Assembly (NCBI RefSeq): GCF_041915465.1
Contig: NZ_JAYSBK010000004.1
Span: 13,559-77,558, forward strand
DNA from: Novosphingobium sp.
GTDB taxonomy: Bacteria; Pseudomonadota; Alphaproteobacteria; Sphingomonadales; Sphingomonadaceae
Direction of reading: 5' to 3'
DNA: 64,000 bases
The notes beneath the pieces are model-generated. The model made no database searches. It was not told the origin of the DNA and was given only the letters and a program-made list of their open reading frames with translations. Positions 8,512 through 59,023 of this stretch are shown piece after piece (the stretch's first letter is position 1; each line of letters starts with the position of its first letter). The position numbers and the translations under genes were made by a program.

Positions 8512-8586
8512 GCGGGCGTAGCTCAGGGGTAGAGCACAACCTTGCCAAGGTTGGGGTCGAGGGTTCGAATCCCTTCGCCCGCTCCA
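8512..8586 (+). tRNA. tRNA-Gly (anticodon GCC); probable ICE integration site
   Basis: GCGGGCG..CGCCCGC acceptor stem plus encoded CCA, TTGCCAA anticodon loop, GGTTCGAATCC T-loop. Confidence 0.97.
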
Positions 8587-43656: not shown

Positions 43657-44912
43657 GCAGCGCCTCCGCCTATGTAAATGGGCTCGTAAAGAGCGCCGGA
43701 CTCGTCACCCGTCCAAGTTTCCCCGCTAAAGCCGGTGGACCCGTCCTCGAAGCCGCTTGCGAGCCATAGCGCGTCCAGCATTCGCCGCAGCGCACCTGGC
43801 TGCACGGCATCAGATGAGGGAAGGTCGACCATACCGAGTTCGAGCCCGGGAATCCGGAGCATACGACTCGTAGTGCGAGCGCCCCTGATCTTCACATCCT
43901 GGAGATCATGCACGCTGGCCTCTAACGAAACAGGGCCTGAGGCACCGAGTTCCTTCAGCAGCGCTGCCAGTCGGCGCGCAGTCTCTACAATCGTTCCTTC
44001 CAAACGCCGCCCGTCGACAACGATATCAGGATCGTCCTGGATTCTAGCACCCACCGTGAGCGAGGCTTCGAGGCAACCCGGCTCAACGAGCCTTGTATAC
44101 CAACGGGCTTCGGGATTGAGCCCATCACTCCGCTGTTTGACAGGATCGTAGCTGGCCCATTGCCCGAGGCTCGTGATCGCCTCGGCACGCTCATAGGCTT
44201 CAGGCACGAAATGCAACTTCAGCTTCTTGATCGCTACGGGGTCAAGGTAGGCCACGGGCTTTGCAGGTGCCATCCGCATCACAAGTCTAGGGCCAGGAAC
44301 GATCGCCGGCACATCACCGCGACCCGTACGATTCCGGAGATCGGCTATCATTTCATGGGCAGCGCGCATTGCATCGGGCTGGACAGCGCCAGCCGCGCGC
44401 TTGGCCAGCGCATGGTCTATTGATGCAGCGAGATAGTCTTCCATCTTTTTAGCGAAGACCCCGCGTACCTTGCGCCGCTCGCCATCGGAAGCGCCTTCCG
44501 CAAGTCGCCACGATGCTGGGTGACGCAAATGGGCGAGGTCGAAGGGAAGCGCCGTAGGCTCCCCGAAAGCGGTGTTCATCACCAGGATGATCTGCTCGTC
44601 ATCCAGCAACGCGCGTGCGTACCCATATTCGGTCAAGACGTTCGGATTCGGCACCAGTTTCCCACCGCTTGTTTCGGCAACAAACGAGACATCGCCAACG
44701 AAGACCGCGCAGCGTCGGATCTTGCGAAGAATTGTCTCGCTGACAGGGGGCGTACCGGCGACACCGGCCGTATCGGAGTCGAGCATTAGGTCGAAGGGAA
44801 ACCGGCTCTGGATTGCCCCGATCGCTTCGTTGAGCGCGATGCGGCCGAATCGCCGGCAGACGTCGTCGTCACGATCGCTCTGCCATGAATAAAAGATACG
44901 AATCTCGTCCAA
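43653..44912 (-). CDS. TIR-like/nucleotide-binding domain protein with C-terminal domain of unknown function
   Basis: IFYSWQSD..FVGDVS..PNPNVLTEYGYA..IILVMN..LPFDL flavodoxin-like signature; TTG start at 44912 inferred. Confidence 0.7.
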   Translation of the reverse strand: MDEIRIFYSWQSDRDDDVCRRFGRIALNEAIGAIQSRFPFDLMLDSDTAGVAGTPPVSETILRKIRRCAVFVGDVSFVAETSGGKLVPNPNVLTEYGYARALLDDEQIILVMNTAFGEPTALPFDLAHLRHPASWRLAEGASDGERRKVRGVFAKKMEDYLAASIDHALAKRAAGAVQPDAMRAAHEMIADLRNRTGRGDVPAIVPGPRLVMRMAPAKPVAYLDPVAIKKLKLHFVPEAYERAEAITSLGQWASYDPVKQRSDGLNPEARWYTRLVEPGCLEASLTVGARIQDDPDIVVDGRRLEGTIVETARRLAALLKELGASGPVSLEASVHDLQDVKIRGARTTSRMLRIPGLELGMVDLPSSDAVQPGALRRMLDALWLASGFEDGSTGFSGETWTGDESGALYEPIYIGGGAA

Positions 44913-45108
44913 ATACCTACACCTCTCATTCGATCCTGCGATGATAGGATTGTCACCCGCAAGCACGCAGCGATCGGTATCTTGCCAGATCGGAAGGAGT
45001 TTTCCTGCGCTTTCTATGCACTCGTGTACGCATGTGGGACCGTAGTGCTCATAATCACGGAATTTCAACGCGATTTTGGCATAATGTTTGGCCACGCTCG
45101 CACGCGCG

Positions 45109-46557
45109 TTAGCGCGACAAATCGCTGGGGCGTGCGAGGCCTCCTTGGAGCAGGCAGGTAACAACATAAATCGGACTCGTACCGGTCTCGACCGGGATGA
45201 TCGTCAATCCGTCCGTCACAGGAAACGGAGGGGTTGATTTCACGCTGCAATCCAGCACGCACAACAAGGCGACACGACGGCCGCTTCCAACCGCGTAGCT
45301 CGCCGCTTGCCCGGCAAACTGCTTACAATCGTCCGGTAGGAGACGCTTCGATTGCTCGGATTTAAGCTCGATCCTTATACCCCTGAACGTCAGGTCGACC
45401 TTGCCTCCGGTGACCTGTCCCTGAACCTCAAGCTCACTGCCAATGGCGGCGTTGGCACGCAGGAATGACTGAAAATCGGCTTGGAAAGCGGCTTCATCGA
45501 TGGGCTTGGGATAGCGTTTGTCCTGGACCGCTTGTCCCATCAGATTGCCGACTGGGGTGAGAAGCGCCAAGAGGTCGCAAATATCCGTCTCCGAGATTAG
45601 CGGTTCGAGCCGCAACCGCTCGCGTAACTGAACGATCTTCGCGTCCAGTTCGCCATAACCGGTAAGCGGATGGCGCGACGTGTCGGTCCCATCGAGGCGC
45701 AACGTTCGCTGTCCCGCGACGACGACAGTTTCGTCGCGTTCGAGCCGAGGCTGAAACTCGGCCGCGTAGCGAAATTCGAGCGGTCGCGCGTTGAAGCCCT
45801 GTGACGCATGCAGCGCCATCCGGCCCTGGCGCTGAAATGTGAAGGGCGCGGGTCCGTCAGGGCGGGGAAATTCGAAGGTCGGGAAATCCCATGTGCTTGT
45901 CGGCTCGATTGAAACCGGCGCAATAACCAATCGCTCGGCGTCGTCGGGCCAGCGCGAAACACGGATAGTCAGATCGAGATCGTGAACCTGCCCCGCTGAA
46001 AGACTGTGGCATGTCTCGGCGGGTTTGCCGTCAATAGAAAATTCCAGAAACGCGACGGCAATCTCGTCCGGTTTCACGGGCAGGTCGTCTGCGGCAGGCG
46101 GGCCGAACCCGCCGCGATCCTCGATACCGAAAATTGCGACGGGCATTTCAAGCTCCGCTATCGCGGCGCCGAGAATTGGCACAGCGTCGACGTCGAGCTC
46201 GCCGTCAATGGGCGCGAGGGCCGTGACGAGCGCCACAGCATAGGCACCATGGGCATCGTCGCTAGCGAGACTGCGATAGCGGAGCCGGGCGGCGCGCAGG
46301 AACCGATCAGCGTCGACTGCGGCTATATGGACGGCTTCGCTCCAGTCGGCGAGCAGGCCGAGGATTTCGAGCGCGGCGGCGAAGGTTCGCCAATCCTTCG
46401 CGGCCTCCGCCTTGCCATAGAGCTCGGCCGCTGCCGCAACCGCTTCGGCCCGCGCACGCAACTCGGCGCCCCCGGCATAGCGCGGCTGTGCTGTGACCGC
46501 TTCGATCGCAGCGACCCTAGAAGGGAAGGTTTGAGCGAGCACGACGTTCACGCTCAT
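45109..46557 (-). CDS. Hypothetical protein with C-terminal PD-(D/E)XK nuclease-like domain
   Basis: DEAAFQADF..GGKVDLTF.GIRIELKSE..QAASYA fits the E..D..ExK..QxxxY restriction-like nuclease motif; beta-rich middle region. Confidence 0.65.
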   Translation of the reverse strand: MSVNVVLAQTFPSRVAAIEAVTAQPRYAGGAELRARAEAVAAAAELYGKAEAAKDWRTFAAALEILGLLADWSEAVHIAAVDADRFLRAARLRYRSLASDDAHGAYAVALVTALAPIDGELDVDAVPILGAAIAELEMPVAIFGIEDRGGFGPPAADDLPVKPDEIAVAFLEFSIDGKPAETCHSLSAGQVHDLDLTIRVSRWPDDAERLVIAPVSIEPTSTWDFPTFEFPRPDGPAPFTFQRQGRMALHASQGFNARPLEFRYAAEFQPRLERDETVVVAGQRTLRLDGTDTSRHPLTGYGELDAKIVQLRERLRLEPLISETDICDLLALLTPVGNLMGQAVQDKRYPKPIDEAAFQADFQSFLRANAAIGSELEVQGQVTGGKVDLTFRGIRIELKSEQSKRLLPDDCKQFAGQAASYAVGSGRRVALLCVLDCSVKSTPPFPVTDGLTIIPVETGTSPIYVVTCLLQGGLARPSDLSR

Positions 46558-49123
46558 CCTCCTTATCCCGTGCGTCCGCTGCAGCGGCTTGCGCCCAAGC
46601 GCGGCCGGCCGCCTCGATCGCGTCGAGGTCCCGCGCGGCAACCGCCGCTTCGAAACGGAGCGCGAGCTGCGGCCATTGCAGCAGCGTGCGCCGCCTGCGC
46701 AGCCGCACCGAATCGCCGTTGCTGCTCACCAGGGCAGTCACAAGCGCGTCCGCCTGTTGTGTCATTCCTGCAGCCAGAAATGCGTCGACGACGCCCAGCG
46801 CGGTTTGCAGCTCGATGTCGAGAACCGAGATCGCAGCGTCGTGAAAGGCTTGCGCGTTGGCCTCCAGCCCTTCCGGGCTTACCTTGTGCAGGAGGTTGAG
46901 TGCTTTATCCGAGTTATTGTAGCGGTCCGCCAGATGGGGGATCATGCGCGCGGCTAGCGTGGCAAATTCAGGCTCTGTACCAAGGCTGTAAGAGAGGGAC
47001 AGGATGTCGGATCGCAGGAAGAGCGGGTCGACATCCATCGCGACCTCGATCAGATAGCGCCTGACCGCGCCGCTCGCGTTTCCGAACAGATCGGCCATCC
47101 CGGCGAGGATACGCACGCATTTCGCTAGAAAATGATCCTCGTTGGACTGGACTCGATAATAACGGATCAGGTTCAAAATGGCGTGAGCCGCGTTGACCCG
47201 GTAGGGTTCGGGAAGGATCGACCGGTGAAAGGCTTCAACGGCGGTTTTGTGAACCGCAACATATTGGTCCCACAGCAGTGCGCCGAACGCCTCAAACAGA
47301 AGGTCGGGAACATTAGCCCGACTACGATAAGGGAGTTCACCGACTGCCGTCGCTGCATAAGAGCGACCAAGCACCGACGGTCCGACAAGGGCGGCGTAGA
47401 GATGGGGTAAAAGCTGTTTCAGCCCCGCCAAGTCACGCGAAAGCTCCTTCGTCGCTCCCAATAGGGCACCTCGAAGATTGTCGCGTCCTTCCGGAATCGT
47501 CTCGAACATGCCGATGATTTTCGCCACCGACGGTTCGTCGCCGGCGGCGCCCTCACTCGCCCATTCGACCAACTGCTCCATCAGGCCGCGCATCACCGAG
47601 CGGCGGGTATTTCGTTCGATTGCGACCAGCGTGTTCTCAGCCGGCTCGGTCATCGCCACGTCAAGCTCAGCCAGTCGATCGTCGAGTAGGAACAGAGCAC
47701 CGATGAAGGCCTCGAGCTGTGCGCGAACCACATGCTCCAGCCCTTTCGAACCGGCGCGAAAGGCCGAGGTGACCTCCTCGAGGACCCTGTCATCATGTTC
47801 GATCGTCGGCGCCCAAACGAGCCGGGTCAGCGCGAGCGCGTGCCGATTGGAGGTCGCCGGGACGGAGGGCTTGTCATAGCCCACATGGACGGCAAGCGCA
47901 TAAACTTTCAGGATCCGGGCGCGATGCGATGCGGGCGCCCCCTCGTTCAGCGCTTGGAGCTGCGCGTCGACATCCTCCGGCGCGGCATCGAAAGCATCGT
48001 TCAGCGCCTCGGCGAGATCGGGCAACCGATCATCCTCATCCTTCAGATCGGCGACAAGGCTGGGCGCGCGGACATAGACCGATGTCAAGGTGAGAAGAAT
48101 CGGGGCCGCCGCCTTCGGGTCCTCAGCGTGCAAGACATGGAGACCTCGACCGGCGCGTTCGAGGGAGGACCGCTTTCCGCTCAGCAACATCTGTTCGATG
48201 GCCGCGATGACGGCCGCGGGAAATCGGGAATAGAGCGCGTAAAGGAATGCGGGATCGCGCGGAATCCTGGGCTCGTCATCACCGTAGAAAAATTCTCGAT
48301 CGTCTGGGTCGGCGAGATCGATGGCGGTAGTAAGAATGGACGCGACGCGATCGGGGGAGACGGCGTCGAGACGCGGAAGCAGCTTTTCCACGGCAATGCG
48401 TGCAGGATAGCCGCGACGCAGGACAGTCATCGCCAGCTCGACGATCATGCCATCCTCGGCGCCAACCGCATCGAGAATGACAAGTGCGGCCTCAGCGAAC
48501 CAAGGCTGACTGCCAGCCAGCGCGAAGACATATTGGACCAGCTCGGGCGTGAAATGCTCGGGAGCCAAGCGCGCACTTTGCGTCACGCGTTCGAAATTTT
48601 CTTTTGACCGATCGGCGTCGAACCCGCCGATGTCCTCCAGCAAGGTGCGTGCGATGGGGCCAAGTGTGGGCAACAATCCTGCACGGATTCCCTTGCGTTC
48701 CTCGAGAGCTTGCGCCGCAAGGCGCGCCTCGGTCTCCGCCCGGGCTTCGAGGACAGCTTTCTCACGATCGCGATCAGCAATGATCTCCATGAGGTTCGGC
48801 AACCTAAGAGGCTTGCGATGACCGCAATTCGCGCAATTTCGATCATAGAATTCGACGATGGCGTCCCGCAGATCCCAGCATGCCATGCCGCCCTCGGGTG
48901 CATGGTCGCAGCGCATGCCATGATGGCCGATCGGAAGACCGGTCATCTGCTCGATCATCCCCGTTCCGCCGAACTTCTCCACGCGGGCGTGCGCGCAGTA
49001 ATTGCGGACAAGCGCCATGGTGTCGCGATTACGCTCCCCGGCTTTGATGGTGTCTGCAATGTCGCGCATCTGCCCCGTCGAAATCGTTCCGTGGGATATC
49101 GGTTCGACAGGGCTCGTCTTCAA
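46517..49123 (-). CDS. Large hypothetical protein: Cys/His-rich N-terminus, coiled coil and HEAT-like helical repeats
   Basis: 868-aa open frame with CAH..CDH..C..CANC cluster and Leu/Ala-rich amphipathic helices; start may be ATG 49069. Confidence 0.65.
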   Translation of the reverse strand: MKTSPVEPISHGTISTGQMRDIADTIKAGERNRDTMALVRNYCAHARVEKFGGTGMIEQMTGLPIGHHGMRCDHAPEGGMACWDLRDAIVEFYDRNCANCGHRKPLRLPNLMEIIADRDREKAVLEARAETEARLAAQALEERKGIRAGLLPTLGPIARTLLEDIGGFDADRSKENFERVTQSARLAPEHFTPELVQYVFALAGSQPWFAEAALVILDAVGAEDGMIVELAMTVLRRGYPARIAVEKLLPRLDAVSPDRVASILTTAIDLADPDDREFFYGDDEPRIPRDPAFLYALYSRFPAAVIAAIEQMLLSGKRSSLERAGRGLHVLHAEDPKAAAPILLTLTSVYVRAPSLVADLKDEDDRLPDLAEALNDAFDAAPEDVDAQLQALNEGAPASHRARILKVYALAVHVGYDKPSVPATSNRHALALTRLVWAPTIEHDDRVLEEVTSAFRAGSKGLEHVVRAQLEAFIGALFLLDDRLAELDVAMTEPAENTLVAIERNTRRSVMRGLMEQLVEWASEGAAGDEPSVAKIIGMFETIPEGRDNLRGALLGATKELSRDLAGLKQLLPHLYAALVGPSVLGRSYAATAVGELPYRSRANVPDLLFEAFGALLWDQYVAVHKTAVEAFHRSILPEPYRVNAAHAILNLIRYYRVQSNEDHFLAKCVRILAGMADLFGNASGAVRRYLIEVAMDVDPLFLRSDILSLSYSLGTEPEFATLAARMIPHLADRYNNSDKALNLLHKVSPEGLEANAQAFHDAAISVLDIELQTALGVVDAFLAAGMTQQADALVTALVSSNGDSVRLRRRRTLLQWPQLALRFEAAVAARDLDAIEAAGRAWAQAAAADARDKEDERERRARSNLPF

Positions 49124-49255: not shown

Positions 49256-49669
49256 TTATCTCCCCTTTCGGCCCATTTCCTCAAACACCCCTTTTCCATT
49301 CTCCAATTTCCGCGCCAACGCCTCGACAAAGCCCTCGTAGCGTTCCCTGCCTTGGGCCTGCGCCGCCGCCATCGCGGATTCCGGTAACGGCGGGTTGGCA
49401 GTGAGCCAGAACCTCACGAACAGCGCCAGAGCCTCATTCGTCACCTCGATCTGAAACTCCAGCCGCTCGTTCTGCTTGGTCAGCCGGTCAAGGCGCCTTG
49501 TGACGGCCGCCTCCATGCGCTCAGAGCCATCGGGCGAAAGGAACGAGGCAATGGCGGCCTCGACAATCGACGCCTGCGTCGCGCGCTTGCGGATCGCGAA
49601 CTCCGCAAGTTGCCGGGAGATGTCCGGCGGTAGACGGAACGTGTGCTTGATGCGGTTGCCGGATTTCAT
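49256..49669 (-). CDS. CopG/ribbon-helix-helix protein of the ICE backbone
   Basis: SIVEAAIASFLSPD..TRRLDRL..EALALFVRFWLT motif; GTG/ATG start overlaps the traG stop. Confidence 0.85.
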   Translation of the reverse strand: MKSGNRIKHTFRLPPDISRQLAEFAIRKRATQASIVEAAIASFLSPDGSERMEAAVTRRLDRLTKQNERLEFQIEVTNEALALFVRFWLTANPPLPESAMAAAQAQGRERYEGFVEALARKLENGKGVFEEMGRKGR

Positions 49670-51660
49670 AGCGCGATCCCATCATCGGGATCGAGGGAGG
49701 CGCGGCGGGCGTTGCCGCGCATCCGCTCCTGCAGGCGTTGGTTGCGCGCGGCATCGTCATCGCCTTGCTCGTCGCGGTCGAAATCGAATTCCCTAGCGAC
49801 CGGCTTAGGCGACGGCGCGATGTCCTCATGGATCGGCAATTCGGGTTCGGTCCGTATCCCAGCATTCTCCGGGTCGGTATCGGGCTGGTCTTTGGGGGTC
49901 GTCCTGCGCTTCGAAGCCGCAGGCGTCCTGGCAATCATGTCCTGCCAATCGTGGGGCGATGCTGCTGCCTTGCCGGCAGCACTGACCTTGGGCGACGAAA
50001 TTACCCGTGCGGCAAGTCGCCTGTCCCGATAATATTGCGCCTTCTTCGCCCGGATCGGATGGGTGCCGGCCATCATCACGATCTCGTCAGTCACAGGCAG
50101 TTCCTGGATTTCGCCAGGAGTAAGGAGCGCGCGGGCGGTTTCCGACTTCGAAATCATCAGGTGGCCCAGCCAGGGCGACAGCCGGTGGCCGGCATAGTTC
50201 TTCATGGCGCGAAGCTCGGTTGCCGTGCCCAGCGATTCCGACACCCGCTTGGCTGTACGCTCGTCGTTGGTCGCAAAACACACCCGGACATGGCAATTGT
50301 CGAGGATCGCGTTGTTCTGACCGTAGGCGTGCTCGATCTGATTGAGGGACTGGGCGATCAGAAAGGCCTTCATCCCGTACCCGGCCATGAACGCCAAAGC
50401 GCTTTCGAAAAAGTCGAGCCGTCCGAGGGCCGGGAACTCATCGAGCATGATCAGCACGCGCTGGCGCTTGGCATCGGGTGCCAGTTCCTCGGTCAGCCGC
50501 CTTCCGAGCTGGTTGAGCAGCAGCCGGATGAGCGGCTTGGTCCGGCTGATGTCGGATGGCGGAATGACGAGATAGAGGGTGGCTGGCCGCTTGGCGTCGA
50601 TGAGATCGGCGATCCGCCAGTCGCACCGGCGCGTCACCTGTGCCACCACCGGATCGCGGTAGAGACCGAGGAACGACATAGCGGTGGAAAGCACACCGGA
50701 TCGTTCATTTTCGGACTTGTTGAGCAGCTCGCGCGCAGCGCTCGCGACCACCGGATGGACACCGCCTTCGCCAAGATGCGGGGTCATCATCATCGCGGCG
50801 AGCGTCGATTCGAACGAGCGCTTGGGATCGGAAAGGAAGGCCGCGACCCCGGCGAGCGTCTTGTCGGGCTCGGCGTAGAGAACGTGGAGGATTGCGCCGA
50901 CCAGCAGCGAATGGCTGGTCTTCTCCCAGTGGTTGCGCTTCTCGAGACTGCCTTCGGGGTCGACCAGTACGTCGGCGACATTCTGGACATCGCGCACCTC
51001 GCAAACGCCGCGCCGCACTTCGAGCAGCGGGTTGTAGGCAGCGGATGCGGAATTGGTCGGGTCGAACAGCAGCACGCGGCTGAACGAAGAGCGGTAGCCC
51101 GCGGTCAGTGTCCAGTTCTCGCCCTTGATGTCATGGACGATGGCCGAGCCCGGCCAGGTGAGCAGGGTCGGGATGACGAGGCCGACTCCCTTGCCGCTGC
51201 GGGTCGGCGCAAAGCAGAGGACATGCTCGGGACCATCATGGCGCAGATACTCGTTGTTGAATTGCCCCAGCACGACACCCTTGTCGTCGAAGAGGCCAGC
51301 GGCCTTGATTTCCTGCCGGTCGGCCCAGCGTGCGGTGCCATAGGTGGCAGCCGTCTTCATTTCGCGAGCCCGCCAGACCGACATGCCGAAGGCGACGACG
51401 ATGGACGTAAAACCGCCCGACGCCGCGATCATCCCGCCGGTGTCGAACACCTTCGGCGCATAGGCATCATAGCTGAACCACCAGCAGAAGAAGTCATAGG
51501 GCCGATAGACCGGCCAACCCAGCAGCATGAACCAGGGGCGGCCGAGTTCGGGCTGGTAGCCAAGCGCTGCAGCAGTCCACTGCGTTGCGGACCAGATCCC
51601 GGTCAACACGAGCAGGAAGACGGCGAGGATCTGTCCCCAGAGGATCTTGATCGCGGCCAT
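49666..51660 (-). CDS. traG: Type IV coupling protein TraG/VirD4
   Basis: APTRSGKGVG, DIKGENW and MLDEFPALG motifs. Confidence 0.95.
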   Translation of the reverse strand: MAAIKILWGQILAVFLLVLTGIWSATQWTAAALGYQPELGRPWFMLLGWPVYRPYDFFCWWFSYDAYAPKVFDTGGMIAASGGFTSIVVAFGMSVWRAREMKTAATYGTARWADRQEIKAAGLFDDKGVVLGQFNNEYLRHDGPEHVLCFAPTRSGKGVGLVIPTLLTWPGSAIVHDIKGENWTLTAGYRSSFSRVLLFDPTNSASAAYNPLLEVRRGVCEVRDVQNVADVLVDPEGSLEKRNHWEKTSHSLLVGAILHVLYAEPDKTLAGVAAFLSDPKRSFESTLAAMMMTPHLGEGGVHPVVASAARELLNKSENERSGVLSTAMSFLGLYRDPVVAQVTRRCDWRIADLIDAKRPATLYLVIPPSDISRTKPLIRLLLNQLGRRLTEELAPDAKRQRVLIMLDEFPALGRLDFFESALAFMAGYGMKAFLIAQSLNQIEHAYGQNNAILDNCHVRVCFATNDERTAKRVSESLGTATELRAMKNYAGHRLSPWLGHLMISKSETARALLTPGEIQELPVTDEIVMMAGTHPIRAKKAQYYRDRRLAARVISSPKVSAAGKAAASPHDWQDMIARTPAASKRRTTPKDQPDTDPENAGIRTEPELPIHEDIAPSPKPVAREFDFDRDEQGDDDAARNQRLQERMRGNARRASLDPDDGIAL

Positions 51661-51782
51661 CTCATTCTCCTTCCGGCTATGTCCAATCGCGGTCGGCGCA
51701 AGTGCGCAAGGTCGGGAAGCCTGCCGGCGCAACCTGGCGAAGAACGACGAGGGCTGGCGAAGGGGCGAGGCGGAACCATCAC

Positions 51783-53537
51783 CTACAACCCCAGCGTGCG
51801 GCTGCGGGTGAAGCTCCAGTCGACTCCGCCGCGCGCATTGATCGTCCCGGCAACCGCCTGCCCCAGATGCCGTTCAAGACTGGGGCGCCATGGCACGAGC
51901 TGGAACCCCGTTCCATCGTCGATCATAGCAAAGCGGCCCGAGGACAGCGTGACGCGTTCCCTGTAGATACCCGCCAGATGGTCGCCGGGTTGTGCGGGCC
52001 TATGGTCCAGCCCCGTTTGCGCGGCAACGGACCTGGCGGTGCCGGCCAGCTCTCGGCTGCGCAGTTCATTGAGCAGGTCTTTGGCAAACACGAACCGCTG
52101 GCCCTGCCGCCGCGCCAGACCTTCGGCTGCCAGATGCTCCGACCGCGCCGCAAGCGCATCGCGCACTTCCGTGCCGAACCCACCGGCGGTCTCGACGGGT
52201 TCGCGGGAAACGAGCTGGCGGTCCAGCCAGGTCGCGCCGGGGGCATGGATCTGCTCGGCAAGCGACAGGTCCGAACGGACAGACAGTGACTGCCGCTCGT
52301 TCCCGTGGGTATCGCGCCACTGGCCAAGCTCGACAATGGCGCCGGGTTTGGCATCGCTCGTCTGGTCGATATCGTCGAACCGGAGATAGTGGGTTCGTCC
52401 ATCGGTCCCATCGACCACGGCATAGGCGCTGCCGCTGAGCTCATCGTGAAGACCGCGCTCGACCAGGCGTCCGATCACGGGATCGGCGGCAAGCCCCTCG
52501 TACAGCGCAAAGCGTCCGGTGTCGGGCCGATGTCCCCCTGCACTCATCGCGCGGTGCATGGTCTTGATGATGTCGCCGCGGATCGAGAGGTCGCGCAATG
52601 TATCCTCAAGGCCGGGCCTCAAGGTCCAGCAGGCGGGGCCGACACGCTCGGCCAGGCCCAGGCGCTCCAGCTTGGCGGCGCGGCCGAGCAAATGATTGTG
52701 GTCGGCGCGGTCATAGCCCGATGGACTGGGGCGCAGGTCGACCACGCCGACTCCTGAGCCTGTCGAAGGATCGTCGGCCAGGCGTTGTAGCGAGCGGTCG
52801 AGACCGGTCCAGCGTTCCGCATCGACCTCGCGGGCCATGGCCCGGGCGATCTCCCGCTCGCTGCGCCGCCCCAGTTCGATGGTGGCCCGCTCCTCGGCGC
52901 GCGATCGGAGCCCCGCGCGAATATAATCGCGGTCGATGACGATGTCCTTGCCGTCCTCGGCGCGGCCCCGGACGAGCACATGGACGTGGGGATTGTTGGT
53001 GTTCCAGTGATCGACGGCCACCCAGTCGAGCCGGGTGTCGAGATCATGGGCCATGTCGTCCATCAGCTCGCGGGTGAAAGTCCGGATGTCTTCGAGTTCG
53101 GCGGCATCCTCGGGCGAGACGATAAAGCGGAAGTGGTGGCGATCCTCTTCGCAGCGCCCGGCGAAGGCATCTCCATCGGCCGCGTCGGACCGGGCATCGA
53201 ATAGCCCTGCGTCCTTGCCGTCGCGGGTGACGCCATCGCGCTTGAGATAGGCGATGTGCCGCGCCAACGGTGCCGCCCGGAAGCGCGCGCCTTTGTGCCG
53301 GACCACGCGCGCTTTGACGATGACGCGCCGATTGGCCCCACAGGACCGTGCCGCAAGTCCGGCTCGCCGCCCGCGCGCCGTCCGCCCCGTCCCGGAATTA
53401 CGCGATCGTGCAGGCCGGTGCCCGCCTTTCATCGAATGGCTGACGACCTGGCCTATGAAGGATTGCGCTCGTCGACCGCTGCCACTGCCCCGGCTGCGCC
53501 CCTTGCCGGGCCGGATATGGAAATCGTCTTCGCTCAT
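51783..53537 (-). CDS. rlxS: VirD2-like relaxase (DUF3363, RlxS)
   Basis: HIAYLKRDGV, HHFRFIVSPED and HWNTNNPHVHVLVRG HUH motif. Confidence 0.93.
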   Translation of the reverse strand: MSEDDFHIRPGKGRSRGSGSGRRAQSFIGQVVSHSMKGGHRPARSRNSGTGRTARGRRAGLAARSCGANRRVIVKARVVRHKGARFRAAPLARHIAYLKRDGVTRDGKDAGLFDARSDAADGDAFAGRCEEDRHHFRFIVSPEDAAELEDIRTFTRELMDDMAHDLDTRLDWVAVDHWNTNNPHVHVLVRGRAEDGKDIVIDRDYIRAGLRSRAEERATIELGRRSEREIARAMAREVDAERWTGLDRSLQRLADDPSTGSGVGVVDLRPSPSGYDRADHNHLLGRAAKLERLGLAERVGPACWTLRPGLEDTLRDLSIRGDIIKTMHRAMSAGGHRPDTGRFALYEGLAADPVIGRLVERGLHDELSGSAYAVVDGTDGRTHYLRFDDIDQTSDAKPGAIVELGQWRDTHGNERQSLSVRSDLSLAEQIHAPGATWLDRQLVSREPVETAGGFGTEVRDALAARSEHLAAEGLARRQGQRFVFAKDLLNELRSRELAGTARSVAAQTGLDHRPAQPGDHLAGIYRERVTLSSGRFAMIDDGTGFQLVPWRPSLERHLGQAVAGTINARGGVDWSFTRSRTLGL

Positions 53538-53690
53538 CGCGACCGGGTCGCGGATCTGAGCCCGCCAGCAGAAGACGGCGCATTTTGCTCTGAAAATATT
53601 GTAGAAATTGAAGGGGGAGCCAGCAGGCTGTTTCGAGCGACGGCTGTCGAAGCCGAGCAATTCCGAGCCTCACCATCCACACCGACGGCG

Positions 53691-53707
53691 GCGCTTTTAT
53701 CTGGCCA
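53691..53707 (+). other. Candidate oriT nick-site motif
   Basis: GCGCTTTTATCTGGCCA resembles the MOBP/IncP YATCCTG^Y nic consensus; in the intergenic region just upstream of the relaxase. Confidence 0.4.
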
Positions 53708-53796
53708 TCCTCCTGAACCTGCTCCTTCTCCTGCTGCCCTTCCGGACTTTCCCACGTCAATCGACGCCATGACACGATCAGGGATCGAAAAGGCGG

Positions 53797-54498
53797 TCAC
53801 TGCGAACGGCTCCCCGAGACGGGCGGGAAGAGGCCGTTCAGGGGAGCGGGCGAAGCGAGAATGGAGGTCTGTGGCGCGGCAGCAGCGAAGCTGCCGGATG
53901 CGGCTGCCGTTGCATCTCCGCGCACGGCAAAAAGCTGGCCCTGTACCCAGGATGTGCGGACCGGCAGCACGGGCGACGCGCTGGCAACGACGGTTGCCGC
54001 ACTGCCCGATTGCAGCATCGGTGCAATCCTGGCGACATAGGCGCGGGTCTCGGCGGGGAGCGCTCGCCCGCGGTCGCGCCAGTCTTCGTAGCGACCCGGC
54101 CCGGCATTATAGGCCGCGAGCATTCCGGTGGTACCGTAGTTTTCGTACATTTCGCGAAGGTAGCTGGTTCCCGCCATGATGTTGTCGCGCGGATCGAACG
54201 GGTCAGCGCCAAGCCCGAACCGGGCGCGCTGACGCGCCCAGGTTCCGGGCATAAGCTGCATCAGCCCCATCGCCCCGGCTGACGAGACTGCGCCGATCCG
54301 GCCCGCACTCTCGGTGCGCATCACCGCATAGATCCAGCCTTCGGGAATGCCGAAGCGCTGCGAGGCTTCGGCTACGTGCGAAGCGATGTCGACGACTTGG
54401 CGCTGCGCCTGTTCGGCAGCGGCCTGCCCGAAGGCAGGCGCGTCACCGAACAGGACAGCTGTGAGGAACGCGGCAAAGCCCAGGCGATTCCAGCGCAT
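53797..54498 (-). CDS. Lytic transglycosylase (SLT)
   Basis: AVMRTES, GAMGLMQLMP and AAYNAGPG motifs. Confidence 0.93.
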   Translation of the reverse strand: MRWNRLGFAAFLTAVLFGDAPAFGQAAAEQAQRQVVDIASHVAEASQRFGIPEGWIYAVMRTESAGRIGAVSSAGAMGLMQLMPGTWARQRARFGLGADPFDPRDNIMAGTSYLREMYENYGTTGMLAAYNAGPGRYEDWRDRGRALPAETRAYVARIAPMLQSGSAATVVASASPVLPVRTSWVQGQLFAVRGDATAAASGSFAAAAPQTSILASPAPLNGLFPPVSGSRSQ

Positions 54499-54502
54499 CG
54501 GC

Positions 54503-54832
54503 TCAGTCCGCCTTGTCGTGCCGGGACGGGCGTGACCAGACCAGGACATGGCCGGCGCCATCGTCGTGGAACAGGTTGGCGCGCAGCGGCTGGACGAACG
54601 AGGGATCGTCGATCTGGAGCGCGACATAGTCGCCGGCCTTCTCGCCCGTGCGCTTCCAGCCCGCGCCGATCTCGCGCGCCTCGTCGCCATCGCCGACGAT
54701 CACCCGGAAGTCGGGTGCGTTCTCGTTGTCGGAAGCATCGGTAGGGAGCAGTACAACTCCAACGTCGAGCGTCAGCGTCGTGATGTGTCCGGCAAAGCCA
54801 TCTTCATCGGTAACAAAATAGCCGATCTTCAT
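54503..54832 (-). CDS. DUF736 family protein, copy 1
   Basis: NAPDFRV..EIGAGW..DYVALQIDDPSF motif. Confidence 0.88.
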   Translation of the reverse strand: MKIGYFVTDEDGFAGHITTLTLDVGVVLLPTDASDNENAPDFRVIVGDGDEAREIGAGWKRTGEKAGDYVALQIDDPSFVQPLRANLFHDDGAGHVLVWSRPSRHDKAD

Positions 54833-55413
54833 CGTTCAGTCTCCTTCGGTTGTTGAACTGGTGGGTGGAGTTGCCGCGGATCGGCGAACCATTTGTGGTC
54901 GCCATCGCCCGCTTCATCGGTCCAGACGGGCGTCGCGCGGCCGATGACATCGGCGAGGCGCAGCACGCCGAAATAGCGGCCATCGAAGCTGTCGGGCGCG
55001 GCCGGGTTCATCACGAACAGCTCGCCCGACTTCATGACGTGGCAGCCCGCCCAGACGGGGAGAGGGCGTCCGAGCCGGTCACGGGCGCGCGCCGCGCCGA
55101 CAAATGCGCCGTCGATGTTTACGCCGTGCGCGAAGCGGCAGACGCGCTGGCCGCTGACGGCGGCGATACTCTTGAGCAGTGGAACGCCGGTCGGCAGGTA
55201 GTGGCGCTCGGCGAGCAGGCGGCGCAGCGGCGGTGGCGGTTCGATCGCCACACGCTCGCCCACGTGTAGGCTCGCCTTGCCGCGGATGGCGTAGAGCCCG
55301 GTCGGCACGGAAGCTGTCGCGTTCCACACCGCGTAGCGCGACACTGGGACGATCATCGTCGCGAGTGTGGCTGCAGCAACGACGCCAGCGAGGAAGTAAC
55401 GACGCCGGATCAT
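54829..55413 (-). CDS. traF: S26 peptidase TraF (pilin maturation)
   Basis: WNATASVPTGLY, LLKSIAA and SFDGRYFG motifs. Confidence 0.92.
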   Translation of the reverse strand: MIRRRYFLAGVVAAATLATMIVPVSRYAVWNATASVPTGLYAIRGKASLHVGERVAIEPPPPLRRLLAERHYLPTGVPLLKSIAAVSGQRVCRFAHGVNIDGAFVGAARARDRLGRPLPVWAGCHVMKSGELFVMNPAAPDSFDGRYFGVLRLADVIGRATPVWTDEAGDGDHKWFADPRQLHPPVQQPKETER

Positions 55414-55949
55414 GGCAAGAGCGCCTTGCGCTGGAGCCAGGCGCGGTGGCGCGCGAGGCTGTAGCCGCGTGGGAGTTCGCGTCCCGCCATGCGATTGTGG
55501 ATGTGCCGCCAATGATCGGGCGCTACCTCACAAGGGTCGATGCCCGATGCCTCGATCGCGTCGATCAGGCGAAAGACCTGGTTGACCTTGGGCCAGCCCC
55601 GGACGGAGAGGAGTAGCTCACCGCCGGGATCGACCTGCGCGATCGGGGTGCAGGACTCGTGCGCTCCGACGGCGCGCACGATGTCGAGCGTCGAGCGGAT
55701 CGTGCCGTAATCGTTGGCAGCCCAGCGCACCAGGCCGAACACCTGGCCTGCCGCATAGCTTTCGACGCGCTGCCTGCGGTCGATGATCCTAGTCGCAACC
55801 GGCTTGCCGAACTTGAGCCAGTCTTCCTGGCTGCCTTCACGCCAGACGAGCGTGACATGGGTCAACTTTGGCCCATCGCTCAACCTCGTCTCGGCTGGCC
55901 TGCGCGGTGGAGCGGCGCCATCCGTCCACAGGCGCTCTGACGTTAGCAA
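55410..55949 (-). CDS. DUF2840 domain protein
   Basis: LTHVTLVW..WLKFG..RWAANDYGT..DPCEVAPDHWRHIHNR motif; start uncertain. Confidence 0.85.
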   Translation of the reverse strand: MLTSERLWTDGAAPPRRPAETRLSDGPKLTHVTLVWREGSQEDWLKFGKPVATRIIDRRQRVESYAAGQVFGLVRWAANDYGTIRSTLDIVRAVGAHESCTPIAQVDPGGELLLSVRGWPKVNQVFRLIDAIEASGIDPCEVAPDHWRHIHNRMAGRELPRGYSLARHRAWLQRKALLP

Positions 55950-56095
55950 GAATCCGAAGGATTCTATGTTAGCATAGTTAAGGGAGCAGGAACGCGAGGC
56001 AATCTGCGGGTTTGCGGGCCATTTCGGTTCCCGATAGTCCGAACTTTGGGTTCCTGATCGTCCGAGTCCGCCGGTTCCTGATAGTCCGTGTTGCA

Positions 56096-56974
56096 TCACG
56101 ACATATCCACAGTGCTAAAGCCCACGCGCCGCATAGCCGCGTCAAACGGATCGACCGGGAGCGCGACGAACATCAGCCGCTCGCGACCGAGCGCGTGTTC
56201 GATGGTGAGCTGGTATCCCGGGAGCGCCTGACGCCGCACGATGTCGCGCAGCTCGAAGGCGAAGCGTTTGGGCGGCGACAGCGCGCCGGACTTCAAATGC
56301 AGGTGCTGGAAGTCGAAGCTCCAGCCACCTTTCTGCTTGCCGCCGTGCTTGCGTACGAGCCGGTAAAGCCAGCGTTCGAGCCCGCCAGTCAGCGCGAAAT
56401 AATCGGGGTCGATGGTCAGGACGAGCGCCTGGTCGATCACGCCTTCGTAGAACCAATCGGGCACGATCATTTCGATCCCGAGAGCGCGGCCCGAATGGTC
56501 GAGGCGTTCCTTCCACTCATTGATCCACGAGAAGCGGTGCCGCCGCCGCGCATCGCGCTGGCGGATCGAGGTCGCGATCGTCGTCGATTGCAGCCGGTCG
56601 AGGCCGGCCTTGAGGCGCTCGTAGCTGGCCTTCCCAGTGCCGCGGCGGGTGAACGCAAGGATCTCATGCGGCGTGGCGGCGATCAGTCGCGAGGTCGGGC
56701 GGCCCATGTCGCGTGCCTCGACGATCTGGCTCGCGACCCAGATCAGAACATCGGCGTCCCAGATGGTCGCCATGCCATGTTCGGCGGTGGCCTCGACCAG
56801 AATTGAGACCTCACCCATCCGGAAGTCGATCGGGCGCACCCGTTTCGATTTGGCGAGGCTGAAAAACGGCCAGGCCATCAGGTCCTGCGCATCACGGGCG
56901 GCGATGTTGCCGCCGTGACTGACGAACAGGTCGAGCTGCTGCGTGCTGGCGGGAAAGGCGGACATGCGACGCAT
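56096..56974 (-). CDS. repA: Replication initiator protein A
   Basis: QDLMAWPFFSLAK, GMATIWDADVLIW and GGLERWLYRLVRKHGG motifs. Confidence 0.92.
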   Translation of the reverse strand: MRRMSAFPASTQQLDLFVSHGGNIAARDAQDLMAWPFFSLAKSKRVRPIDFRMGEVSILVEATAEHGMATIWDADVLIWVASQIVEARDMGRPTSRLIAATPHEILAFTRRGTGKASYERLKAGLDRLQSTTIATSIRQRDARRRHRFSWINEWKERLDHSGRALGIEMIVPDWFYEGVIDQALVLTIDPDYFALTGGLERWLYRLVRKHGGKQKGGWSFDFQHLHLKSGALSPPKRFAFELRDIVRRQALPGYQLTIEHALGRERLMFVALPVDPFDAAMRRVGFSTVDMS

Positions 56975-56982
56975 GGGTTCGC

Positions 56983-57255
56983 TCAGCGCCGCACCGGCGG
57001 AGTGTAGCCGTCGAGCCGCTTGGCAGGATGGACAATCCCCTTGCCCGGATCGCTGGTCGAGCGACGCAGGCCCTGTTCGGCCCAGGCATCGAGATCGGCG
57101 ACCGAGTAGACGATCCGCCCCCCGAGCTTGCGGTAGACCGGCCCGGTCCCGAAGCAGCGGTGCTTCTCAAGCGTGCGGGCAGATAGTCCCAGATGCACAG
57201 CGGCATCGGGTGTTCGCAGGAATCTGGCTATTACAGGTGTGGGTCTGGCATCCAT
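56983..57255 (-). CDS. rdfS: AlpA/MerR-like HTH excisionase (recombination directionality factor)
   Basis: FLRTPDAAVHLGLSARTLEKHRCFGTGPVYRKLGGRIVY..DLDAW; first gene of the repA-traF-rlxS operon. Confidence 0.85.
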   Translation of the reverse strand: MDARPTPVIARFLRTPDAAVHLGLSARTLEKHRCFGTGPVYRKLGGRIVYSVADLDAWAEQGLRRSTSDPGKGIVHPAKRLDGYTPPVRR

Positions 57256-57340: not shown

Positions 57341-57371
57341 GTGACAGATTGAGCCGGATGAATTCTGTCAC
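57341..57371. promoter_or_regulatory. Inverted repeat upstream of rdfS (candidate FseA-binding site)
   Basis: GTGACAGA-N15-TCTGTCAC perfect 8-bp arms, 86 bp upstream of the rdfS ATG. Confidence 0.6.
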
Positions 57372-57385
57372 CCCACCGGGTTCGC

Positions 57386-58157
57386 TCAGTCGTGGCGAAG
57401 CAGCTTGCGGTATCCGCCGTTAGCCAGGCGGCGCGCTTCTGCAATCAGTCGGAGAGTGTGTCGGCGTTCTCCCGAACCCTTCCAGGTCGCGCCGACCAGC
57501 GGGTGCTGCCGCGGGAAAACGAGGCTGAAGGCGAGATCGCGAGGGCCAGCGCCGGCGTCAAGCGCGTCATGGATGCTCAGCAGCAAGGCGAGCCGTGAAC
57601 GCCGATAGGCGGACGGCGAGGCCGACCGGTCAGGCCCGAGGCGAATTCCGCGCGTCACCCGCTCGAAGCGGGTCGCAGCGGCGAGCCGGGTAGCCGCGCT
57701 CCGATCGTGCTGAATGATCAAGCAATCGGAGAAACCCGAGGGTGCAGCGCGGAGGCACAGGCGAAGCCTTGCCGCGCCGTAGGCCATGACCAGGTGATGT
57801 TCGGTAGGACTGCTCTCATTTGCCAGCGGCTCAAGGCCGGGCGGCAGCGGGATTGCGGCGATGTCTCTGGTTGCGACAACGACGACGTCGGGCGATGCAA
57901 GCGGTGACCAGAGCGCCGGTGTTCTCCGCGGATCGGCGTCCGGCAAGGTGGGGAAAGCTCAGCCCCCATCGTCCGGCCAGACCCTCCTCTTCGGCTTTAG
58001 CGCTTGCGGAATCTCTGGCGATCCGGTCCTGTGTCTCGGCATAATCTTGCAAGTAGGCGGAATTGCGCTGCAGAAACTCCTGCGCAAAGTCTGCGTAATC
58101 GTGGTGCGCGTATCTCTCTGATACATTTGGCGATCGCCAAGATGATCCACCCGACAC
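57386..58157 (-). CDS. fseA: FseA-like transcriptional activator: DUF6499 ORF (58157-57831) and DUF2285 ORF (57952-57386) joined by a +1 programmed frameshift, about 256 aa
   Basis: WRS..DYADFAQEFLQRN and RWGLSFP in frame 0; DUF2285 HTH (IHDALDAGAGPRDLA..ERRHTLRLIAEARRLANGGYRKLL) in the +1 frame; slippery motif CGA TGG GGG CTG AGC TTT CCC. Confidence 0.85.
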
Positions 58158-58311
58158 ATCCGATCTCCGCGAGTTCAGGTGAAACGGTCTTATGTAAGTA
58201 TTTGAATATCAGAATTTCTTGGCAAGGTCCGTGACTGCAGCGAGTTCTCCGCGCAAAGGTAGAACTATGCAGTCACCTTTCGCGCTTCGATGAGATCCGG
58301 CAGGATGATCA

Positions 58312-58566
58312 TCACTTCTGGAGCAGGTGCCGGAACCCGCTGTCACGCATCCAGTGCGCGCGATCCAGGTGGCTGGAAAAAATGAGCCTTGCATGTTCTG
58401 TGTCTGCATCAGGTTCGATCTCGAAGACGATGCGCACGATCTCGCGCCAGTCCGCCCCTTCAGCCTCGGCATCGAGCAAGCGCAGGTATGTGACGAGGTT
58501 TTGCTCGTCATAAGCGGTTATGCCATCGCCTTGCGGCGGTTCAGTCAGGAAATGCATTTTTGCCAT
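58312..58566 (-). CDS. qseM: QseM-like antiactivator (small DUF2285 protein)
   Basis: EPP..ITAYDE..YLRLLDAEAEGADWREIVRIV..SSHLDRAHWM..GFRHLL. Confidence 0.85.
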   Translation of the reverse strand: MAKMHFLTEPPQGDGITAYDEQNLVTYLRLLDAEAEGADWREIVRIVFEIEPDADTEHARLIFSSHLDRAHWMRDSGFRHLLQK

Positions 58567-58790: not shown

Positions 58791-58813
58791 TGCAATGGCC
58801 GTCATTGCGTGCA

Positions 58814-59023
58814 ATGACTTTGCGCGAGGTCCTTGCAGAGAATTTGAAACGGCACCGGTTGGCAGCGGGTTTGTCGCAGGAAGAGCTCGCCCATCGCGCC
58901 GACATCGACCGGACCTACGTCAGCAGCCTCGAACGCTGCCAATACGCGGCTACCGTTGACGTCATCGAAAAGCTTGCGCGTGAGTTGAAGGTCGACGCCT
59001 CACTTCTGCTGCAGCAGCCCTGA
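58814..59023 (+). CDS. qseC: XRE-family HTH control protein, QseC-like
   Basis: NLKRHRLAAGLSQEELAHRADIDRTYVSSLER; divergent from qseM. Confidence 0.85.
   Translation: MTLREVLAENLKRHRLAAGLSQEELAHRADIDRTYVSSLERCQYAATVDVIEKLARELKVDASLLLQQP

Follow-up and report, generated by a model that had tools for sequence, protein, structure and literature searches.

The window, by which we mean the whole 64-kb stretch of DNA that was analysed, contains on its minus strand at 57386-58157 two overlapping reading frames that lie between two small candidate regulatory genes on one side and an excisionase-like gene followed by a conjugation backbone on the other. The gene order can be written as qseC / qseM-fseA-rdfS-repA-traF-relaxase-traG, and the features of this region are the following.

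58805-59023, plus strand: qseC-like XRE/C-protein-type regulator (HTH_3, 72 aa), divergent from qseM
58312-58566, minus strand: qseM-like antiactivator candidate (84 aa, PF10074 only with E 2.7e-8, pI 5.0, charge -7)
58197-58225, minus strand: sigma-70-like promoter match TTGCCA-17-AATACT between qseM and fseA, a weak one (consensus match 9/12)
57831-58157, minus strand: frame-0 ORF, msi172-like (GTG start, 108 aa, PF20109/DUF6499 at residues 7-69)
57951-57971, minus strand: conserved +1 shift motif CGA TGG GGG CTG AGC TTT CCC, with the slippery UUU_C at 57956-57953
57386-57952, minus strand: +1-frame part, msi171-like (linker, middle beta domain and PF10074/DUF2285 DNA-binding domain), ending with TGA 57388-57386
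57944-57946, minus strand: TTG from the ORF list, the ORF-caller start of a separate 186-aa DUF2285 protein
57341-57371, no strand assigned: candidate FseA box GTGACAGA-N15-TCTGTCAC, starting 14 nt past the fseA stop and ending 85 nt before the rdfS ATG
56983-57255, minus strand: rdfS-like excisionase/recombination directionality factor (HTH_17, 90 aa, ATG 57255, GGAGG 6 nt upstream)
49666-56974, minus strand: conjugation/maintenance backbone downstream of rdfS, comprising RepA (RPA), DUF2840, S26 peptidase TraF, SLT transglycosylase, DUF3363 relaxase and TraG coupling protein

Reading frames, shift site and domains

The first-pass annotation had read the minus strand at 57971-57951 as CGA TGG GGG CTG AGC TTT CCC and had taken the locus for FseA of an ICE in its +1-frameshift form. 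These letters were confirmed; they lie in frame with GTG 58157 and encode R W G L S F P. The motif pattern SRVTGGGGNNTNNNNTTTCSY has a single match in the 64-kb window, compared with 0.01 expected from shuffles. Translation from GTG 58157, which is preceded by the Shine-Dalgarno-like sequence GGAG 8 nt upstream, runs through the site in frame 0 as ...RWGLSFPHLAGR..., and the 108-aa protein that results is the product if the ribosome does not shift. When C 57953 is skipped within the local site UUU CCC C, the translation becomes ...RWGLSFPTLPDADPRRTPALW... and stays open to TGA 57388-57386, with a total length of 256 aa. The fused product across the junction is ...RWGLSF-PTLPDADPRRTPALW..., and the conceptual fusion was translated by reading CCCC as P at this point. 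A UUU-to-UUC slip that moves translation from the DUF6499 frame into the DUF2285 frame, to give about 256 aa, had been described with the right frames, site and length, and the junction peptide proposed for it, WGLSFPTLPDADPR, was also correct. An in-frame TTTC is also found at codon 28, earlier than the shift site.

The gene is indeed divided by ORF callers, as had been predicted; an example is the 176-aa 'DUF2285 domain-containing protein' of Sphingobium sp. H39-3-25. The start codon of fseA also varies among relatives. The window and its two closest relatives (loci L001 and L028) start the gene with GTG (58157-58159) in the context gATGTG, and ATG is the start in 42 of the 44 other relatives that could be read cleanly. 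A weak GTG start would add another damper on fseA expression.

The two domains named earlier, DUF6499 and DUF2285, were both recovered, one on each frame. PF20109 (formerly DUF6499 and now 'Trans_reg_dom') matches residues 7-69 with an E value of 3.5e-17 and stops at the shift codon, and PF10074 (formerly DUF2285 and now 'RovC_DNA-bd') matches residues 151-254 with an E value of 8e-23, both matches being well above the curated cut-off. The pI and charge computed from the sequence of residues 151-256 are 11.8 and +12. The helix motif of DUF6499 reads FAQEFLQRN, and its residues A25, Q26, E27, L29, R31 and N32 are invariant in the clade; compared with the motif published for FseA (AWEFLRRN), the sequence AQEFLQRN found here has Q in place of W and of one R.

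A structure model was obtained with AlphaFold for a natural single-ORF homologue that is 72% identical, from an alignment of 12 sequences (mean pLDDT 80.6, pTM 0.73). The model consists of a helical N-domain (10-63), a beta middle domain (92-147) and a helical C-domain (154-252), a layout that matches the three-domain description of FseA, and the junction maps to the linker directly after the last DUF6499 helix. Its sole significant Foldseek match was RovC of Yersinia (PDB 6xz5; E 9.7e-5), which is also matched by the family profile through both halves (E 3.9e-7). In RovC the WG motif and the DUF2285 domain are contiguous in a single chain. However, RovC is encoded by a single ORF without a frameshift, and it regulates type VI secretion instead of a conjugative element; sequence identity amounts to about 18%, and the global TM-score reaches only 0.33-0.38.

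Single-ORF relatives and conservation of the split

A database search with the fusion returned 10 natural single-ORF proteins of 256-257 aa, 45-72% identical and with both domains present, together with many DUF2285-only fragments under separate annotation. The fusion aligns with the 10 single-ORF homologues without any gap, and R63, W64, G65, L66, P69, P72, P76, P80, A81, L82 and W83 are invariant across the junction. At the DNA level two of the fused homologues read AGC TTT CCC ACC at the junction, whereas AGC TTT C CCC ACC stands in the window and in the split loci closest to it, so that these fused and split genes are one C apart.

A scan of one genome per species gave 77 loci, nearly all of them from Sphingomonadales, and the frame relation of each locus was determined by tblastn with the two halves run separately. 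Among the 75 loci in which both halves were present (window counted) the +1 relation was found at the identical nucleotide in 68, six were in frame and one was aberrant. Leaving the window aside, 67 of 74 two-half loci, mostly from different species, share the +1 shift at the same nucleotide, and in the split loci the identity of the C-terminal part to the query falls from 80% down to about 34%. The consensus of the site in the split loci of this clade is TGG GGN YTN NGC TTT C CCY, in which TGGGG is invariant, TTT is present in 67/68 loci and the following C in 68/68. In a maximum-likelihood tree the +1 state occurs in every deep clade and the in-frame forms are scattered tips, with 9 changes by parsimony; the share of in-frame tips is biased upward, as these tips come in part from a protein database that is blind to split forms. 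This distribution suggests that the split has persisted across deep divergences and that the loss of one C has repeatedly produced single-ORF forms.

In a wider sample 401 Pseudomonadota genomes were screened for PF20109, of which 32 were positive, and in 18 of the 29 loci fetched the DUF2285 part lies in the +1 frame. The motif SRV.TGG.GGN.NTN.NNN.TTT.CSY, on which the original reading of the site had relied, reappeared in 17 of these 18 split loci as TGG GGN NTN NNN TTT C with the same spacing, an independent confirmation of it. TTT C is followed in the wider sample by CC, CG, GC-type letters or, once, AC. At the fourth position after TTT the family as a whole shows G, A or C; the 68 loci of the sphingomonad clade have C (63) or T (5) there and never G or A. 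This bias after TTT CCC stands out, as CCG is the commonest Pro codon (57%) and nearby synonymous sites vary freely; the constraint may reflect decoding by tRNA-Pro(GGG) or a second slip codon.

From the sequence comparisons, the two overlapping frames almost certainly specify a single protein, an activator of element transfer of the FseA type. The reading of the locus as FseA of an ICE in the +1-frameshift form is supported by the motif, the domains, the frames, the conservation, the colinearity and the synteny. Moreover, the comparative data make a programmed shift appear far more likely than a broken gene, because the +1 site is kept in 67 other loci and the single-ORF homologues are colinear with the fusion. 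The locus is an ordinary member of a published family, whose mechanism, motif, partner proteins and wide distribution have already been reported; 4,709 FseA homologues have been collected, about 61% of them with a conserved +1 site (PMC10359603).

The probable slip at UUU_C and its alternatives

A programmed +1 ribosomal shift at UUU_C that yields a 256-aa FseA-type activator is highly probable. Most ribosomes starting at GTG 58157 would keep the frame and produce the 108-aa DUF6499-only protein, and a minority would slip at UUU_C (57956-57953), where the P-site tRNA-Phe(GAA), wobble-paired on UUU, would re-pair on UUC. Reading would then resume with CCC ACC TTG... and the 256 aa would join DUF6499, the middle beta domain and DUF2285. 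TTT makes up 17.6% of the Phe codons of the genome, in which a single tRNA-Phe(GAA) was found; a scarce UUU with this lone tRNA fits a wobble-paired UUU slipping to a fully paired UUC, as in ICEMlSymR7A, where the efficiency of the UUU-to-UUC slip is 4-13% (PMC4755241). In 46 of the 68 loci the +1 frame meets a TGA stop two codons ahead of TTC, and in these the shift is therefore possible within only a few codons.

The type of slip is that of prfB, the gene for release factor 2, in which a +1 P-site slip to a better-pairing overlapping codon also takes place with a G-rich tract upstream. The G-tract of prfB lies 3 nt from the slip codon, whereas the upstream G-run here is 7 nt from UUU; in addition, there is here no in-frame stop in the A site and no autoregulatory logic via termination.

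Several candidate stimulators of the shift were considered. An RBS-like UGGGGG has been discussed for the family (PMC10359603). It is not specifically conserved in the sphingomonad clade, where the third base of the Gly codon is mostly C, and a Shine-Dalgarno-like stimulator is unsupported in this clade, that third base following ordinary usage (GGC in 52/68 loci). A hungry-codon explanation was rejected, the frame-0 A-site codon CCC not being rare (33% of Pro codons). The search for a downstream RNA structure with covariation found none and predicted only an invariant GGGG/CCCC pairing around the slip codon; this pairing, uninformative either way, was rejected as evidence of a downstream stimulatory structure.

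The clade site UUU CCC C (U UUC CCC) may go further than the slip at UUU_C and be doubly +1-slippery, with re-pairing of tRNA-Phe and then of tRNA-Pro(GGG), so that the frameshift would be tuned differently from that of Mesorhizobium; the plentiful unshifted 108-aa DUF6499 protein might also act as a decoy titrating QseM. This proposal is unlikely; if it were true, transfer would be held back by nothing but the frameshift and QseM, fseA being wired between qseM and rdfS without quorum sensing.

It is improbable that the slip is instead made by tRNA-Pro on CCC_C (57953-57950), one codon past UUU, or that both codons contribute. After decoding CCC in frame 0, tRNA-Pro(GGG) would re-pair perfectly on the overlapping CCC, and the protein sequence would be identical. 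In bacteria CCC_N is known to be prone to +1 shifts, the genome has a gene for tRNA-Pro(GGG), and in the 68 loci the site reads TTT CCC C (63) or TTT CCC T (5) although CCG amounts to 57% of the Pro codons. Nevertheless, the split loci L064 and L066 read TTT CGC and TTT CGT, and those of the wider sample mostly have TTT CGC, TTT CGT, or TTT CCC followed by G or A. Because many split loci are without CCC_C, UUU_C is the sole element common to all, and since many members have TTT CGC or TTT CGT a slip by tRNA-Pro cannot be the mechanism of the whole family. Moreover, the published slip has been assigned to tRNA-Phe (PMC4755241).

Another explanation dispenses with the fusion and lets the 108-aa DUF6499 protein and the DUF2285 protein started at TTG 57946 act together as separate subunits. 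The two ORFs were reported apart by the gene callers, DUF6499 and DUF2285 touch each other in the published models (PMC10359603) and the TTG, unlike the situation in most relatives, lies three codons past the site. However, this TTG is present in only 3/68 split loci, and elsewhere the first start mostly loses the invariant stretch P69-W83, the commonest being a GTG 23 codons past the site and downstream of that stretch. Inspection of the sequence upstream of TTG 57946 found no Shine-Dalgarno sequence within 5-10 nt, and the single-ORF homologues are colinear with the fusion. A frame relation fixed at one nucleotide in 68 loci would be purposeless for separate genes, and the unfused genes of ICEMlSymR7A gave 0.8% of the activity of the fused gene (PMC4755241). 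Separate subunits are consequently very improbable.

An extremely improbable route to the same protein is transcriptional slippage, in which RNA polymerase would drop one C in the C4 run and the frame would be restored in the mRNA. There is a homopolymer at the junction in this clade, and protein data alone cannot separate this process from ribosomal slippage; against it, the runs for which productive transcriptional slippage is known are far longer than four residues, and many split members are without the run (TTT CGC C, TTT CGT C). That the locus is a pseudogene through a recent inactivating mutation, or a true single ORF in which a homopolymer sequencing error turned CCC into CCCC, has next to no probability: the fused and split forms are one C apart in a C-run and the genome is a 191-contig draft, but the identical extra base is found in 67 independent assemblies, mostly of different species and with 34-80% protein identity to the query, and each frame has stayed open and conserved on its side of the site.

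Regulatory neighbourhood and host element

The genes around fseA recur with it. An rdfS-like gene is found downstream of fseA in 72/75 loci, a qseM-like gene upstream and on the same strand in 66/75, and a qseC-like gene divergent upstream in 62/75. The QseM-like protein has weak pairwise similarity to the C-terminus of FseA (26%, E 0.62). The acidic DUF2285-only protein and the divergent XRE-type regulator together form a predicted QseM/QseC-type arrangement. The candidate box is found at the same place in 64/74 loci when up to 3 mismatches and a 15-nt gap are allowed, and the sequence of its spacer varies, as is expected of a protein-binding site. The published FseA box consists of two hexamers in inverted orientation, separated by 15-16 bp and located upstream of the rdfS -35 (PMC10359603). 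In the present locus no -35/-10 pair was identified for rdfS.

The likeness to FseA (msi172-msi171) of ICEMlSymR7A from Mesorhizobium japonicum/loti R7A extends over the whole arrangement. Both loci have a DUF6499 ORF and a DUF2285 ORF in +1 relation (PMC4755241, PMC10359603), and in both the UUU_C shift is preceded by the W-G-L codons, UGG GGN in the first two. In each case rdfS is the likely target, the arms of the inverted repeat are separated by about 15-16 bp, and a QseM paralogue that has DUF2285 only is found close by together with a divergent QseC. Each locus also belongs to a conjugative element that has genes for TraF, SLT, a relaxase of the DUF3363 type, TraG and Trb proteins. There are, however, differences. 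Here fseA lies directly behind qseM on the same strand and beside rdfS, whereas R7A has a traI2-msi172-msi171 operon convergent with qseM. The GTG start and the UUU CCC C site are further differences. The conserved repeat here is GTGAC-N21-GTCAC. The genome, 95.7% complete and with one fseA and one qseM, yielded neither LuxI nor LuxR-AHL domains, unlike R7A; many such ICEs with FseA and QseM lack quorum sensing (PMC4755241).

The occurrence of the shift and its low efficiency, the DNA binding, the activation of rdfS and the antiactivation by QseM are inferred from ICEMlSymR7A. With the slip at UUU_C as the source of the full-length protein, an FseA dimer would bind the inverted repeat GTGACAGA-N15-TCTGTCAC just 3' of its own stop and activate the rdfS-repA-traF-relaxase-traG operon, upon which excision and transfer would begin. 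The acidic QseM-like DUF2285-only protein would block FseA via the DUF6499 domain, and the divergent QseC-like repressor would set the levels of QseM.

The host had been taken to be a sphingomonad, and the chromosomal flank bears this out, being Novosphingobium-like; the best named relatives of its thioredoxin-TPR protein are from Novosphingobium (81-84% identity). Housekeeping genes lie to the left of tRNA-Gly(GCC) at 8512-8586, and to its right follow catabolic genes, trbI-trbB, a cargo block and the conjugation backbone. The element has a relaxase, TraG, TrbB/E/L/I and the rdfS-like gene, it carries in the window an aromatic-degradation cluster, and the contig ends within it. Exact 48-52-nt copies of the 3' end of tRNA-Gly(GCC) adjoin tyrosine integrases (Arm-DNA-bind_3 and Phage_integrase) on two other contigs, at C12:31804-31855 (locus L078, 5805-5856) and C6:66990-67037 (locus L079, 6991-7038). 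These copies suggest att sites belonging to a single ICE or to two, perhaps arranged in tandem at tRNA-Gly, which the draft assembly leaves unlinked to the window. The element is likely an integrated ICE whose far end is unlinked in the assembly.

A second trbI gene was found on C12, across the tRNA-Gly copy from the integrase. Within the window, four large ORFs at 40666-49123 between trbB and traG are without a Pfam match, except for RelA_SpoT in a 996-aa ORF, and they constitute the cargo block inside the conjugation backbone. A 'tRNA-Pyl(CUA)' of 85 nt reported by ARAGORN at C58:6221-6305 is probably a false positive: its acceptor stem is mismatched, its D stem is 3 bp long, and several of its pairs are G-U.

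Current annotation presents the gene either as a pair of hypothetical proteins or as a 'DUF2285 domain-containing protein' that is truncated, and through this split annotation the master switch of a large family of catabolic sphingomonad ICEs is hidden in databases. The scientific gain of the present analysis is small and its practical value is for annotation. To the published picture it adds the clade consensus of the shift site given above, the candidate operator, and evidence that the split state is kept despite deep divergence with single-ORF forms appearing repeatedly from the loss of one C.

Some loci of the scan depart from the usual arrangement. In the MAG Sphingomonadales JN15.011 (locus L059) rdfS lies about 1.9 kb past fseA, compared with about 135 nt elsewhere, and the inverted repeat was not found after fseA; an insertion has probably split the activator from its target promoter. 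In two metagenome contigs (loci L113 and L114) that encode the single-ORF homologue P0002, a convergent alpha/beta-hydrolase gene takes the place of rdfS-repA behind the fused fseA, so the element that houses the nearest in-frame relative may be rearranged or decaying. Porphyrobacter sp. SLTP has two qseC-qseM-fseA-rdfS-repA modules (loci L041 and L043) about 76 kb apart on one contig, both with the +1 site, and this strain therefore carries two related elements.
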